Positions 51,672-56,856 of a stretch of DNA of 64,000 nucleotides are shown piece by piece (position 1 is the first letter of the stretch; each line of letters opens with the position of its first letter). The stretch lies in NCBI GenBank assembly GCA_025812035.1, contig GCA_025812035.1_4719.1. One strand, 5' to 3'. Below the pieces are notes generated by a model. The model was not told where the DNA came from and did no database searches. It was given only the letters and a program-made list of their open reading frames with translations. This DNA comes from a phage. The position numbers and the translations under genes were made by a program.

Positions 51672-51772
51672 TTAAGAAGCTCTGCCTGATGTCAGGCAGA
51701 GCTTTATGCTGCGTTTACTGCAAAATCGTATGACGTATATACGTCGTAATGATTAAAAATAGGGCAGAACAC

Positions 51773-53227
51773 ATGAAACTCAAACAAAGCTGGAAAAACG
51801 AACTCCTTGCATTAGTAAACAGCAAAAACAGTTTACAACTGACATTAGACGACGTAAAATTTGAACTAACCGAACCGGTAAGCGAAGTGCCTGGAACGGT
51901 CGTTGTTACGATCAAACCGAACGATAATAGTCGCTACTTTAACGAGCAGTCTCTGACCTACGTCCGTCGAGACATTGCTAAAAACTTCACCGGGATTCCG
52001 TTACGGGTTATCGTTAAAAAAGATACCGCCGTAAGGGATATCATCAGTACGATTGCTAAACGTTACGGACTGGTATTTGATACCACTGTCGACTTCCTCG
52101 AATCAGAACTGAATAAGCAAATTACTTTCGCAGACACCGGTATTAAAGACGTTACGGTTCCGGTTGCCAATACGTCTTATGTTTGGGCCGGTAATCTTCA
52201 GTTCAATATCGCTAACGATACGTTAAGCTTGATTACTATCATCAAGAAAACCGATCTTACGAATCTGGTTTATCTGGATGGTGTTGAAGCTGACACATCG
52301 GGGTCGTTACTGTTAGCAACCGCAGCACTTGTTAACGAACACGTAAATGAACCGATGGTTGAAAACGAAGATATCGTTAATGAATTCATTAACGTTCTTA
52401 ATGCTCTAGCCAAATATGGTGACATAACCGGCGATGAATTAGATGCCGCCTTACAAGCGTACGATGAAGCAGAAAACAGGAATAAAACCACGGTAATAAC
52501 TCTTGGTGATATCGAGTGCGTTGCAACCGAAAAAGACGATTGGGAAATTGGACATTTACGCGGTCGGATGGTTCTCGCGCTCAAATCCGATAAACAACCG
52601 GAGCTCGATAACACGTTCAGGTTGTTTACGAATGGTGGTGATGTATCGCTAACGTTAAACACAATGAAAGATATAAGTATCGATTGGGGTGATGGGAATA
52701 AAGTAACGTTGGATGCCGAAGAAAGATACGCGCACCACACATATGCCGACAATAACCAATACCAAATCGAAATTGTGTCTCGTACGGACCCAGATGTGCT
52801 GCGACCAAATTATATTTCTGGGAGTGAGATAACCGAAGTAATTCACTGGGCTACTACTTCAACAATAGCTCTGAATTTTGTTGGATGCGATAATTTAGCG
52901 ACTGTTCCAGATGAGATCCCAACTTCGTGGACAACGTTGGACAGCATGTTTGAAAGTTGTACGAATTTGAATGATCCGTCTATCTCTAACTGGAATACAA
53001 GTAACATCACATCAATGAATGGTATGTTCGGCGGATGCACTAAATTTAACCAACCTTTAGCTGCCTGGGATGTCAGCTCGGTAACTGACATTGGTGGTAT
53101 GTTTGTCGGGTGTAGCAGTTTTAACCAAGATTTAAGTGGATGGCGATTACCGTCTGGAGTAAACCACCGCGATTACGATAGTGGTGCTTTCTCGTGGCAG
53201 ACGGAACATAAACCGACGTTCAAGTAA
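51773..53227 (+). CDS. tail fibre-like protein (shared N-domain, PKD-like segment, DUF285-type repeats)
   Basis: start revised to ATG at 51773 (MKLKQSWKNELLALVN aligns with paralog N-termini); IDWGDGNKVT...YAHHTY; C-terminal ...FNQPLAAWDVSSVTDIGGMF...FNQDLSGW. Confidence 0.55.
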   Translation: MKLKQSWKNELLALVNSKNSLQLTLDDVKFELTEPVSEVPGTVVVTIKPNDNSRYFNEQSLTYVRRDIAKNFTGIPLRVIVKKDTAVRDIISTIAKRYGLVFDTTVDFLESELNKQITFADTGIKDVTVPVANTSYVWAGNLQFNIANDTLSLITIIKKTDLTNLVYLDGVEADTSGSLLLATAALVNEHVNEPMVENEDIVNEFINVLNALAKYGDITGDELDAALQAYDEAENRNKTTVITLGDIECVATEKDDWEIGHLRGRMVLALKSDKQPELDNTFRLFTNGGDVSLTLNTMKDISIDWGDGNKVTLDAEERYAHHTYADNNQYQIEIVSRTDPDVLRPNYISGSEITEVIHWATTSTIALNFVGCDNLATVPDEIPTSWTTLDSMFESCTNLNDPSISNWNTSNITSMNGMFGGCTKFNQPLAAWDVSSVTDIGGMFVGCSSFNQDLSGWRLPSGVNHRDYDSGAFSWQTEHKPTFK

Positions 53228-53636: not shown

Positions 53637-54598
53637 TCAATTTCTCCATTCTTATCTTGGTCGCAGTCGCATTCTTCGTTGTTCTTCTTACTTAAACGTA
53701 AGACACCGAGTGCAGCATGCTTGAGTTCTTGCAAGGCGCTTTTCAGCTGACCTTCTTCGTCGAAATCAAAATACTTCTCGTTGTAGCTTAATGCTGGAAT
53801 CATATTTACGAGAGGTTCGATGGCAGGCATCAGCATTTCAATGACGACCTTAGGGTCAACAAAACGTTCAAACCCTTCAGGAAGTTTACTTGCCACAACC
53901 TTATCGTTCTTGATGTAGAATTTGTTCTTGAACAAATCGTCAAGAATAGCGTTTTCTTCATCCGTGCGTTCCGCATAAGGACGATCGATCATCTGAACGA
54001 AAACACCATTCAATGTTTCAGGTACAGATGGATTTTCACGAATCGAAACCCCACCAGGAATCTCAATATCGATCTTCGCCCACTCAACTACCTGATGGTC
54101 TCGCGTGTAGATAACATCTACTTCCCACGCCAGACCGTCAGGACTTTCTACGGTGTAACGTGTTTTCGCTTGACCTTCCGGAGCCATACGCTCAATGGCA
54201 TCAAACATCTCGACCGGAATTTCTACTTCGCTTTCCGTCGCGTCACCTGGACCGCGATACACCTTCGTGGTCATGATGTATTTCGGTTCTTCGTTACCGA
54301 TCTGTATCGCACGTGCGCGCACCTGACCTTTCACACCACCAACGGCTGTGTTATCGAACAACCATTGATGTTGCACCATATGTTCAATTTTCGATGCTAC
54401 TTGACGAAGACGTTCAACGCCATCTTCGGCCAGTTTGCCAAAGAAGACCAGCTCACGTTCCTGCTGTGTCTCACCACTTAACATCATTAAATTGGCGATT
54501 TGTTTCACGCCTCTTACTTTTGACATACATGCTCCGGTTATAAGGGTCTGTTTCCAGACCCCTCGTTGATTTTTGATTTCACCAAACGCTATCGTCAC
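53633..54598 (-). CDS. hypothetical protein
   Basis: 321 codons; 4-nt overlaps with the genes on both sides suggest an operon with the helicase. Confidence 0.45.
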   Translation of the reverse strand: MTIAFGEIKNQRGVWKQTLITGACMSKVRGVKQIANLMMLSGETQQERELVFFGKLAEDGVERLRQVASKIEHMVQHQWLFDNTAVGGVKGQVRARAIQIGNEEPKYIMTTKVYRGPGDATESEVEIPVEMFDAIERMAPEGQAKTRYTVESPDGLAWEVDVIYTRDHQVVEWAKIDIEIPGGVSIRENPSVPETLNGVFVQMIDRPYAERTDEENAILDDLFKNKFYIKNDKVVASKLPEGFERFVDPKVVIEMLMPAIEPLVNMIPALSYNEKYFDFDEEGQLKSALQELKHAALGVLRLSKKNNEECDCDQDKNGEIE

Positions 54599-56856
54599 AA
54601 TTCGAAATCTTCATCGATAACGCGCTGTGTGAGCACCTTGTCACTGAAGAACTCTACTTTGCGCTGATGGTATTTACGGTGCGCTTCGATAGAGGTACAC
54701 ACCAGATACCAGAACGTTGGCGTCATTCCTTCAAACTTCCCTTTCAGCTGACGCAGTCGCCCCAACACCTGAATGTTACCGGTTCGTGATCCCATCGCTA
54801 ACGTCATGAACGCCATCACCAAATCAGGGAGGTCGATACCTGTCCCCGCCGATTTCACGGTTGTAACGCTGATATCGTTATCCAACAAGACCATGAAATC
54901 TTCTTCAGCGGTATAAGGACCGATCTCTAACTCGGGAATACGTTCACTGAGATAGTGCGACAATGACTTACACATATCAACGGTTGCACAATACACCAGC
55001 ATCTTCATACCTTCCTGATACTGGTTCATGAAACCTTTGATGATAACCGTATAGATAAAGTTGAAATACGCGAGTTTGAGTTGCTTATTCTTCATGATAG
55101 ACTGTTCGAATATCGTGTGTGAATAAGAACCCCCAAAGCCTTTGTATCTGATTTTATCTGTACTACGTAGTCGATACGTCACGGCATTTACCGCAATGTA
55201 TTTCTTGTATTCGCCTTTTGCGAAACGCGCTTCTTTCGGATACATCAAATACAACATCCGCTCGATGAACGGATCATCGGATACCGCTGTTGCCGACAGA
55301 TAAATGATTTCCGGAATATTGGCGTAACACTTGACTTTAAACAAGAAATGCAAGGCTTCGTGACATTCGTCGTGAATCAGTAGACCTATACCCGTCTTTT
55401 CCCAAAACTCAGCGGGATGGAAGGCGTATGGCGCAACGCAGTTATTCTTCTCGTAGTCCGCAATATAACGTTGGAACATGTTCAAGGAGAATAACGCGAT
55501 TTTGAAATCCAGCTCGCCTTGTTCCACCAACGTCTGGAATTCCAGCATGCTGTAACGAGGAATGTCGGGATGCGGTGGATCCTCCTTAGCGTTCCCGCGT
55601 ATCTCAATAACGTCCCCTGGTTCCATTCCGAAGAAGTTCAGCAATGAGCTTCGCCAACCTGGCATATACCGTGGAGAGAGTATGATGCCTGTGCGTACAC
55701 CACGTCGAAACACGATTTCCTGTGACATCGCGGTGTTGTGTGTGACGATGTGGTCTTTAATGACATAAAGGCTTTCGTCATTATCCACCGTGATGCAACG
55801 TGCTTTCGCTTTAACTGTCGGTACGATGCTATCAATCGCTAAACCAGGAAGCCTGTTAACAGGGAGATCGTCTGGAATCTCAACGTCGTCAGGAATAAGC
55901 TTAAGTAAATCGGAATGATAAATTAATGTCTCCATCGTGTAACTATCGATGGGGCATTTATACGCAATTCCTCCTAACTGATACGCCAACTCCCAAACCT
56001 TGGTTGTTATCTGTGAATCAACGGTTCTGACCGCAAGGTGAGCCTGTCCGTTTTCGATTCGCAACTCACAACGACCTTTGACCACCACCTTAAATTCTTC
56101 GAGACCTACGAGTTCTTTCGGTTCGTAAAGTCGGATTCTTATCGGACGGGGTCTGGCAGGTTTATCGTAAAGACATTCCATGATTTCGTCTGTGCTGAGA
56201 ACCTTATCGGGGTCAGTACAACGCCAGAGATGATCGCCACAAGCTTCAACCATTCTACCGTCCTCAAAGAAGATAGCATAAAGCTGAATATTGTCATGAT
56301 CGAAGATCGCTGTAACGTTGGTCGGTAGCCCATTCGCACCAATAACCCGATCCCCTACTTGAAGCTCACCAATCGGCTTCCAACCACCTGGAACCTTTAC
56401 AGGCGTATGAAGCGCTAGCGCTTTGCCACTGCCTGTTTGAGCGGTGTTTAGGCTCATTCTGAAGGGGGTATCCTTACCCCCGTTCATGTACTCCAGCCAT
56501 TCTTGCTGATCTTCTCGCCACGGAAACTTCCATTTCTTTACGAACTCCACTTCCTTACCGGGTACCGGATCATGGTAAACGATCTCCAGCCACTCTTTTC
56601 GGATTCCTCGGGAAAAGATAAAATCCAAAAACGATTTCAACTGTTCGCGGAGTAAGTATACCTCGCTATAATCGCTTCTCGCTGCGGCATACGTGTTTAT
56701 GGTATCGGTAACCATTCTCCGTGTACGAGGGTCACGTCGTTTCCTCAGATGCAAACAACGGTCTCGAAGGTAATGGCCGATAAGATGGGCAAATCGAAGT
56801 CCGTATCCGCTCAGCTTCATGCCATGCGAGAAGACGTCGATACGAGCTAACTTCAT
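54595..56856 (-). CDS. DExH-box helicase interrupted by an intein
   Basis: Walker A AQTGSGK...T split by an insertion; motif II LIHDECHE; SAT; motif V/VI VKSAGTGIDLPD and QVLGRLRQ. Confidence 0.7.
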   Translation of the reverse strand: MKLARIDVFSHGMKLSGYGLRFAHLIGHYLRDRCLHLRKRRDPRTRRMVTDTINTYAAARSDYSEVYLLREQLKSFLDFIFSRGIRKEWLEIVYHDPVPGKEVEFVKKWKFPWREDQQEWLEYMNGGKDTPFRMSLNTAQTGSGKALALHTPVKVPGGWKPIGELQVGDRVIGANGLPTNVTAIFDHDNIQLYAIFFEDGRMVEACGDHLWRCTDPDKVLSTDEIMECLYDKPARPRPIRIRLYEPKELVGLEEFKVVVKGRCELRIENGQAHLAVRTVDSQITTKVWELAYQLGGIAYKCPIDSYTMETLIYHSDLLKLIPDDVEIPDDLPVNRLPGLAIDSIVPTVKAKARCITVDNDESLYVIKDHIVTHNTAMSQEIVFRRGVRTGIILSPRYMPGWRSSLLNFFGMEPGDVIEIRGNAKEDPPHPDIPRYSMLEFQTLVEQGELDFKIALFSLNMFQRYIADYEKNNCVAPYAFHPAEFWEKTGIGLLIHDECHEALHFLFKVKCYANIPEIIYLSATAVSDDPFIERMLYLMYPKEARFAKGEYKKYIAVNAVTYRLRSTDKIRYKGFGGSYSHTIFEQSIMKNKQLKLAYFNFIYTVIIKGFMNQYQEGMKMLVYCATVDMCKSLSHYLSERIPELEIGPYTAEEDFMVLLDNDISVTTVKSAGTGIDLPDLVMAFMTLAMGSRTGNIQVLGRLRQLKGKFEGMTPTFWYLVCTSIEAHRKYHQRKVEFFSDKVLTQRVIDEDFEL
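55735..56421 (-). other. intein (~229 aa) inserted in the helicase P-loop
   Basis: N-terminal block ALALHTPVKVPGGWKPIGELQVGDRVIG resembles intein block A but begins with Ala; C-terminal block ...SLYVIKDHIVTHN followed by Thr; removing it restores GSGKT. Confidence 0.55.

Follow-up and report, generated by a model that had tools for sequence, protein, structure and literature searches.

Class 3 inteins and the P-loop insertion point

The inteins of class 3 are defined by the lack of an N-terminal Cys, Ser or Thr and by the WCT triplet, i.e. Trp at position B:12, Cys at F:4 and Thr at G:5, and the residue that follows the intein (+1) is usually Ser or Thr and rarely Cys (Tori et al. 2010). The protein in which the class was first defined came from a phage and bore, at the time, the annotation of a DnaB-like helicase; a phage origin has been proposed for the class as a whole. 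Among inteins that interrupt P-loops, GK/T (the slash marks the insertion point) has been described as the 'classic' site. It is at this site that a helicase gene in a phage DNA window of 64,000 nucleotides (nt) (the entire stretch analysed here; GenBank assembly GCA_025812035.1, contig GCA_025812035.1_4719.1) encodes an insert of 229 amino acids (aa) that is very likely a class 3 intein, a self-excising protein element, seated in the P-loop.

The founding member of the class, the intein of Mycobacteriophage Bethlehem (MP-Be) DnaB (gp51), shares with the window's intein the missing N-terminal nucleophile, the WCT triplet and Thr+1, but it is 341 aa long, carries a full LAGLIDADG endonuclease and begins with Pro1, and its host protein and phage lineage are unrelated to those described here. 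When class 3 was defined, this host was annotated as a helicase-type phage protein; a later paper identifies Bethlehem gp51 as a recombination directionality factor. For inteins of the founding type, including also Dra Snf2 and MP-Catera gp206, the mechanism has been established biochemically; it cannot do without the block F Cys and passes through two branched intermediates. The structurally characterised inteins of the class, the mycobacterial DnaB-1 inteins of Mycobacterium chimaera (MchDnaB-1, PDB 6rix/6riy) and M. smegmatis (MsmDnaB-1 or DnaBi1, 6bs8), are minis 139-146 aa long, in which an unstructured linker occupies the former place of the endonuclease, whereas the window's intein has 229 aa and a folded half-LAGLIDADG remnant; their host is the bacterial RecA-fold replicative helicase DnaB, in contrast to the phage superfamily 2 (SF2)/DExH helicase interrupted here. 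Mycobacteriophage terminase TerL1-a and other ATPase P-loop inteins occupy the same spot, between the Walker A Lys and Thr/Ser, but in other host proteins, and many of them are class 1. Finally, the full-length P-loop inteins of jumbo phages (Erwinia phage Rebecca gp251, 345 aa, and many metagenomic examples of the form xQTGxGK/A...VTHN/T) have the helicase family, the GK/T site and the class 3 signature in common with the window's intein and are syntenic with it, lying downstream of the RNA polymerase (RNAP) beta-subunit gene. These retain the motifs LGxxLGDGG and LLQGLxDTDGT and are presumably homing; the window's intein, by contrast, is without the first half-domain and without both motifs.

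An intein that splits the Walker A motif of a phage helicase

The sequence-only reading of the window had described the insert as AQTGSGK-[229 aa]-T at 55735-56421, and translation of the open reading frame (ORF) bears this out to the base: the insert starts with ALALHTPVKVPGGWKPIGELQVGDRVIG, ends with SLYVIKDHIVTHN and has, as that reading had seen, an intein-like C-terminus followed by Thr (His228-Asn229/Thr+1). The general marks of an intein, namely the block B His64, His228-Asn229, Thr+1 and a Hint fold, are accompanied by all those of class 3 in the definition of Tori et al. (2010), i.e. the non-nucleophilic Ala1, the WCT triplet Trp66/Cys209/Thr227 and Thr at +1. The alternative first step that had been suspected from Ala1, a Trp in block B and a Cys in the C-terminal block is thereby recognisable as the published WCT signature, which aligns with that of MchDnaB-1. 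A class 2 intein (KlbA type), having Ala1, no WCT and a Cys+1 that attacks the N-terminal junction directly, was considered and is excluded because of the WCT triplet and Thr+1. The host was rightly labelled a DExH helicase, its motif II reading DECH.

The identity of the intein was settled by a sequence search of the PDB and a fold search. With phmmer against all PDB sequences, the top matches are MchDnaB-1 (6rix/6riy, E 3e-12) and the M. smegmatis intein (6bs8, E 1e-11), both of which likewise begin with ALAL and end with THN; the phage gp41-1 intein is next. The HMMER alignment equates His64/Trp66 with His65/Trp67 of MchDnaB-1, Cys209 with Cys124, and Thr227-His228-Asn229 with Thr143-His-Asn145. 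When the intein is aligned by MAFFT with 24 homologues (23-93% identity), no variation is seen in the columns D24, D54, H64, W66, G150, C209, L218, T227, H228 and N229; residue 1 varies among the 25 sequences and is seldom a nucleophile. Cys62, which precedes His64 by two residues, is what the majority of homologues have at its position (consensus CxEHLW).

How large is the family to which this intein belongs? A word-indexed protein search returned two matches only, owing to k-mer prefiltering and database size, so that 1.84 billion representative proteins had to be scanned exhaustively with HMMER, and this yielded 9,612 relatives at a cut-off of E<=1e-3. Features were counted in 173 inteins extracted from the best 150 proteins of these 9,612, many of which have two to four inteins each. 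The first residue is Ala in 102, Pro in 20 and Cys or Ser in 14; Thr (129) and Ser (37) together account for the +1 residue of 166; GK precedes the intein in 111 of the 173, and 134 end in VTHN. Their lengths cluster at ~140 aa (minis) and at 180-300 aa, with the main mode at ~320-376 aa. Homologues of the segment sit in unrelated hosts (DnaB, terminase, primase, dCTP deaminase), and PHROG terminase, primase and DnaC-like profiles match the intein because those profiles contain P-loop inteins. A 204-aa homologue in P0002 (ALALDT...ITTHN/S), located after EGK in a dCTP deaminase-like protein, shows the same intein lineage outside helicases and terminases. Multi-intein metagenomic relatives include P0004, P0005, P0011, P0017, P0018 and P0030, in some of which one intein lies within another or directly adjoins it: P0004 has an intein ending in VTHN that abuts the next, which starts with CTTEDTPV, and in P0017 and P0018 inteins lie around SGTGK, one residue-block apart.

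Presence and absence of the intein on one background

The whole window is ~90% identical in DNA to Escherichia phage vB_EcoM_Goslar (NC_048170). The helicase gene has the same ~90% identity to its Goslar counterpart, but just 68% of it aligns, in two pieces. Goslar gp164 ('DNA helicase', 524 aa) matches the joined flanks at 97.1% identity, but residues 146-374, and exactly these, are missing from it, i.e. its P-loop is uninterrupted (AGTGSGK/TAMSQEI; DNA GGGTCTGGTAAA/ACAGCCATGTCG), so that alignment of the extein with an intein-free homologue, the check that had been proposed for the intein call, confirms it to the residue. The sequence-only reading had named as refuting a conserved domain of the same extent in homologous helicases; the opposite was found. 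A lineage-specific structural domain of the helicase has, in our estimation, next to no chance of being the correct explanation: nothing was found in its favour, the closest orthologue lacks precisely this segment, most of the 291 records of the family are uninterrupted (phiKZ, 201phi2-1 and Ea35-70 among them), and the segment recurs in the unrelated host proteins listed above.

One allele, P0155, of a type found on E. coli O157 contigs (e.g. EKC0517721.1), has the intein within an extein of Goslar type, with AGTGSGK as its P-loop and a C-extein that is 99.7% identical to that of Goslar, and presence and absence therefore occur on essentially one background. In Erwinia phage Rebecca, the 345-aa insert of gp251 is at the same point (TLQTGKGK/ATTLDT...FIVTHN/TFCG), yet there is no insert in Ea35-70, Desertfox and Mortimer, to which this phage is closely related. 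Intein-like stretches of ~197-203 aa, immediately preceding the C-extein match, occur in several jumbo phages of Klebsiella/Serratia and Aeromonas. A scattered occurrence of this kind at a single site is typical of mobile inteins. A six-frame phmmer search of the window with both lobes of the intein, N- and C-terminal, detected no second intein.

Purifying selection and variation among alleles

A protein identical to the 753-aa precursor is recorded at NCBI under the name 'hypothetical protein [Escherichia coli]' (EKA1377573.1), encoded on a contig of 238,607 bp, and its 90%-identity cluster comprises 158 members from E. coli/Salmonella assemblies and metagenomes. None of the cluster members read has an intein annotation; the query protein and at least five others are called 'hypothetical protein'. 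Over the intein, the metagenomic orthologue L002 shares 90.5% DNA identity with the window, 43 of the codon differences being synonymous and 15 non-synonymous, and the ratio of non-synonymous to synonymous substitution (dN/dS; Nei-Gojobori, window versus L002) is 0.09 for the whole intein, 0.08 for its N-terminal lobe, 0.14 for the central domain and 0 for the C-terminal lobe, next to 0.08 and 0.02 for the N- and C-exteins, respectively. The intein is under purifying selection.

In 14 alleles from the cluster (members P0003 and P0153-P0166), otherwise 85-99% identical, the intein is always 229 aa long; His64, Trp66, Cys209, Thr227, His228, Asn229 and Thr+1 are constant, and so are the last 31 residues (199-229). 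The most variable stretch is formed by residues 1-5 (56407-56421), which read ALALH, AIPLN, AVRLT, AIPLT or CLEIS. Residue 1 is Ala in 13 of the 14; it is Cys in P0158, from a Salmonella Panama assembly, where the full WCT set is kept. This variability could reflect relaxed constraint at the N-terminus of a class 3 intein or, alternatively, recombination between intein variants.

Splicing and its possible regulation

The catalytic residues are intact, selection is purifying and the host gene is important, all of which points to a splicing-competent intein; a non-splicing insertion in the P-loop would be costly because this helicase is conserved in phiKZ-like phages. The mechanism is proposed by homology to the dissected MP-Be DnaB, Dra Snf2 and mycobacterial DnaB-1 inteins. 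Translation would yield the 753-aa precursor, the split P-loop of which is expected to disrupt ATP binding and hydrolysis. As Ala1 would be incapable of the usual acyl shift, the thiol of Cys209 would attack the Lys145-Ala1 bond, helped by His64 and Trp66 of block B and Thr227 of block G, and this would produce a branch with a thioester at block F. The N-extein would then pass to the hydroxyl of Thr+1, cyclisation of Asn229 would free the intein, and an O-to-N shift would finally create a normal Lys-Thr bond in a 524-aa helicase with AQTGSGKT intact. The Thr that serves as C-extein nucleophile is also the Walker A Thr, which splicing would put back beside Lys145.

Several points weigh against an active class 3 intein with a decayed endonuclease. 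Splicing is predicted here from sequence; engineered WCT grafts may not splice; and Arth_1007, a natural class 3-like intein, is a pseudogene, albeit one devoid of the block F Cys. Pfam Hint models reach the intein only at E ~0.1, below threshold. The dN/dS estimate derives from a single sequence pair with small counts, the AlphaFold model from an alignment of 25 sequences only, and the value of 0.14 for the central domain is unlike that of a purely decaying remnant.

Could the insert, then, be a relic that is no longer excised, leaving the helicase inactive or working with a permanent additional domain? The clear decay of the endonuclease part and the existence of a natural class 3-like intein that does not splice would both be compatible with this. 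We nevertheless consider it highly unlikely: the catalytic residues are intact and unvarying in the 14 alleles, whose last 31 residues are identical, the intein as a whole evolves at the low dN/dS given above, a permanent insert of 229 aa in the Walker A GK/T should abolish ATP binding by a conserved helicase, and the pseudogene lacks the very Cys that is present here as Cys209.

A further option refines the splicing intein rather than competing with it, in that the intein may have been kept as a post-translational switch of the helicase, with splicing being conditional, e.g. inhibited by oxidation of Cys209. The precedent is Msm DnaB-1, the closest characterised relative and likewise a P-loop intein, which H2O2 reversibly inhibits via a disulfide with the catalytic block F Cys. 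Besides Cys209, the window's intein has five further cysteines (Cys62, 68, 84, 118 and 155), the first of which is also the majority residue in homologues, and the intein has been kept throughout the 158-member cluster at low dN/dS. However, the partner Cys48 of Msm DnaB-1 has been described as non-conserved; Goslar works without the intein, so that a switch is dispensable; and purifying selection is expected anyway, because an intein in an important gene must keep splicing. We regard regulated splicing as unlikely.

The central domain: remnant of a homing endonuclease

Intein residues ~77-190 are predicted with high confidence (AlphaFold2, AF2, and fold search) to fold as helix-strand-strand-helix-strand-strand, i.e. 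as a LAGLIDADG half-domain. This bears on the suggestion that the insert might be a mini-intein. What stands of it is that no LAGLIDADG or HNH sequence motif occurs in the intein; what does not is the absence of an endonuclease domain, as ~110 extra residues adopt the half-domain fold. With 229 aa the intein exceeds true minis by ~85 aa (those of the same family have 138-154 aa), and a true mini-intein, consisting of the splicing domain only (~130-150 aa), is ruled out by the folded central domain.

Alignment with the ~345-aa inteins of the same site shows what has been lost and what retained. The first half-domain, with the motif LGxxLGDGG, is wholly missing. The second LAGLIDADG helix motif (LLQGLxDTDGT) is gone, VVVKGRC standing at that position, and Lys115 occupies the place of the catalytic Asp (LLDTDG in the 345-aa relatives); other relatives have HG or YG there, which are non-acidic too. 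The downstream strands persist, together with an LxRSLGG (LxxxLGG) helix, VWELAYQLGGIAY, that includes the invariant Gly150. Judged by its sequence, the central domain is a vestigial single half-domain devoid of its catalytic Asp, and it is almost certainly no active nuclease. Because one half-domain is deleted and the other is without LAGLIDADG motif and catalytic Asp, the intein is probably no longer homing by itself; its spread would now probably occur via vertical inheritance or general recombination.

It might be objected that a single half-domain could dimerise, as that of I-CreI does, and still cut alleles such as Goslar's as an active homing endonuclease. The confidently predicted fold under purifying selection, the presence/absence polymorphism on near-identical extein backgrounds and the raised synonymous divergence from Goslar beside the insertion site are in keeping with this. 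Yet the LAGLIDADG motif is missing and Lys-Gly (in VVVKGRC), like the HG/YG of relatives, offers no acidic residue at the catalytic position, and similarly divergent pockets exist elsewhere, while P0155 has flanks of Goslar type at the protein level. Continued mobility of this kind seems to us very improbable indeed.

If the decayed endonuclease no longer cuts, why has it been retained? The central domain may have a structural or other role. A more specific possibility, which we consider distinctly unlikely, is that the remnant has been exapted as a module tying maturation of the helicase to a signal inside the phage nucleus. Like the degenerate LAGLIDADG domain of WhiA, a transcription factor, it could serve to bind DNA or to dimerise, in concert with a Cys209 that is sensitive to redox state. 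Such a role would fit the constant length of 229 aa in 14 of 14 alleles, the dN/dS of the central domain and the sharing of this central remnant with ~230-aa inteins at unrelated insertion sites. If true, a model lineage of nucleus-forming phages would harbour an intein domesticated as a conditional switch.

The splice junction and its flanks

The 12-bp palindrome AGCGCTAGCGCT that had been noticed at 56411-56422 is real, and it grows to a perfect 14-mer, AAGCGCTAGCGCTT, across the N-terminal splice junction (3 nt from the Lys codon and 11 nt from the intein). Under a first-order Markov model, 4.6 +/- 1.8 perfect 14-bp palindromes are expected in the window and 9 are found; for 12-mers the numbers are 18.5 +/- 4.3 and 30. 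The junction palindrome thus does not stand out in the window. The palindrome is not conserved in L002, whose junction reads AAA/GCGGTCCGGCTT, cannot be encoded by the AIPLN, AVRLT and CLEIS alleles, and has no counterpart of such symmetry at the intein-free site of Goslar (GGTAAA/ACAGCC). A functional element, be it a homing-site mimic or a regulatory hairpin, was rejected on the grounds of its absence from L002, its incompatibility with other alleles and its frequency in the window, and the palindrome is probably incidental, a by-product of the K-A-L-A-L codons. Another perfect 14-bp palindrome, GACGTATATACGTC, lies at 51732-51745 in a short gap between genes, where 3 nt separate it from the downstream ATG of a gene for a BspA-like leucine-rich-repeat protein (492 aa, 51749-53227); in Goslar, a terminator is annotated in the corresponding gap.

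On the C-extein side of the intein (55295-55734, ~440 nt), the window is 73-87% identical to Goslar per 100 nt, as against 91-96% further into the gene, and in the ~20 nt upstream of the site (56422-56442) nearly every P-loop codon differs at its third base, whereas the far N-extein is 98-100% identical. The divergence next to the insertion site is mostly synonymous, and L002 has flanks like those of the window. The pattern hints at a tract co-converted from a diverged donor. It was not accepted, however, as a proof that homing took place recently: pockets at 53995 and 59595 are equally divergent from Goslar, and the divergence is not tied to the intein because P0155 combines the intein with Goslar-type flanks at the protein level.

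Features of the locus and genomic context

The helicase gene (Table 1) belongs to a conserved family of phiKZ-like jumbo phages, and its spliced sequence matches the phrog_16 DNA helicase (E 1e-26). Its start overlaps the stop of the RNAP beta gene by 4 nt, which suggests translational coupling, and the order RNAP beta followed by helicase is common to Goslar and Erwinia phage Rebecca. Antisense ORFs inside the intein (56038-56328 and 55562-55768, plus strand) were taken as non-coding because homology support for the minus-strand frame is overwhelming.

Table 1. Coordinates of the helicase gene, its predicted intein and adjoining features in the 64,000-nt window
Feature	Position	Strand	Basis or remark
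Upstream gene, phage multisubunit RNAP beta-subunit fragment, 668 aa	56853-58859	-	phrog_3015, E 5e-170
Precursor gene, SF2/DExH helicase with predicted intein, 753 aa	54595..56856	-	ORF list
N-extein, aa 1-145	56422..56856	-	translation and Goslar gp164 alignment
N-extein end AQTGSGK (Walker A, first seven residues; aa 139-145)	56422-56442	-	translation
Perfect 14-bp palindrome across N-terminal splice junction	56410..56423	.	
Predicted class 3 intein, Ala1...Asn229, 229 aa, 687 nt, precursor residues 146-374	55735..56421	-	
Hint fold N-terminal splicing lobe, blocks A and B, intein aa 1-76	56194..56421	-	HMMER alignment to MchDnaB-1 residues 1-69; AF2 strands
Ala1 codon GCG	56419-56421	-	
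Block B core CGDHLW: His64 (B:10), Trp66 (B:12, W of WCT)	56224..56241	-	
Central insert, intein aa 77-190, putative vestigial LAGLIDADG-type half-domain	55852..56193	-	
Hint fold C-terminal splicing lobe, blocks F and G, intein aa 191-229	55735..55851	-	
Cys209 (block F:4) codon	55795-55797	-	predicted initiating nucleophile
Thr227-His228-Asn229 (block G)	55735-55743	-	
Thr+1, residue 375, predicted C-extein nucleophile and Walker A Thr (GK-T)	55732..55734	-	translation
C-extein, 379 aa plus stop	54595..55734	-	translation and Goslar gp164 alignment
Helicase motif II DECH, within C-extein	55360-55371	-	translation

The window belongs to a Goslar-like jumbo phage and comes from the assembly of an E. 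coli isolate, and sister alleles are located on ~240-kb contigs of Salmonella Typhimurium, Kentucky and Panama and of E. coli O157 assemblies; there was no match in complete RefSeq E. coli genomes. Goslar-like phages appear to ride along in the sequencing of enterobacterial isolates.

Significance

The intein of this helicase has a decayed endonuclease, occupies the classic P-loop site and is a so far unannotated member of the well-described class 3 family. It leaves the current understanding of inteins unchanged, and its value lies in annotation and in natural pairs with and without the intein. The cluster members deposited as hypothetical proteins can now be annotated as intein-containing helicases of Goslar-like jumbo phages. 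In Goslar itself, which serves as a laboratory model of nucleus-forming phages, the allele is free of the intein; close relatives contain it, one of them on a Goslar-type extein. What does a class 3 intein in the P-loop cost the phage, or what benefit does it bring, how fast does it splice, and does it do so conditionally? These phages offer a natural system in which such questions can be asked, and the allele series, with its fixed catalytic residues, hypervariable residues 1-5 and Cys1 variant, amounts to a small natural mutagenesis set on what the N-terminal junction tolerates.

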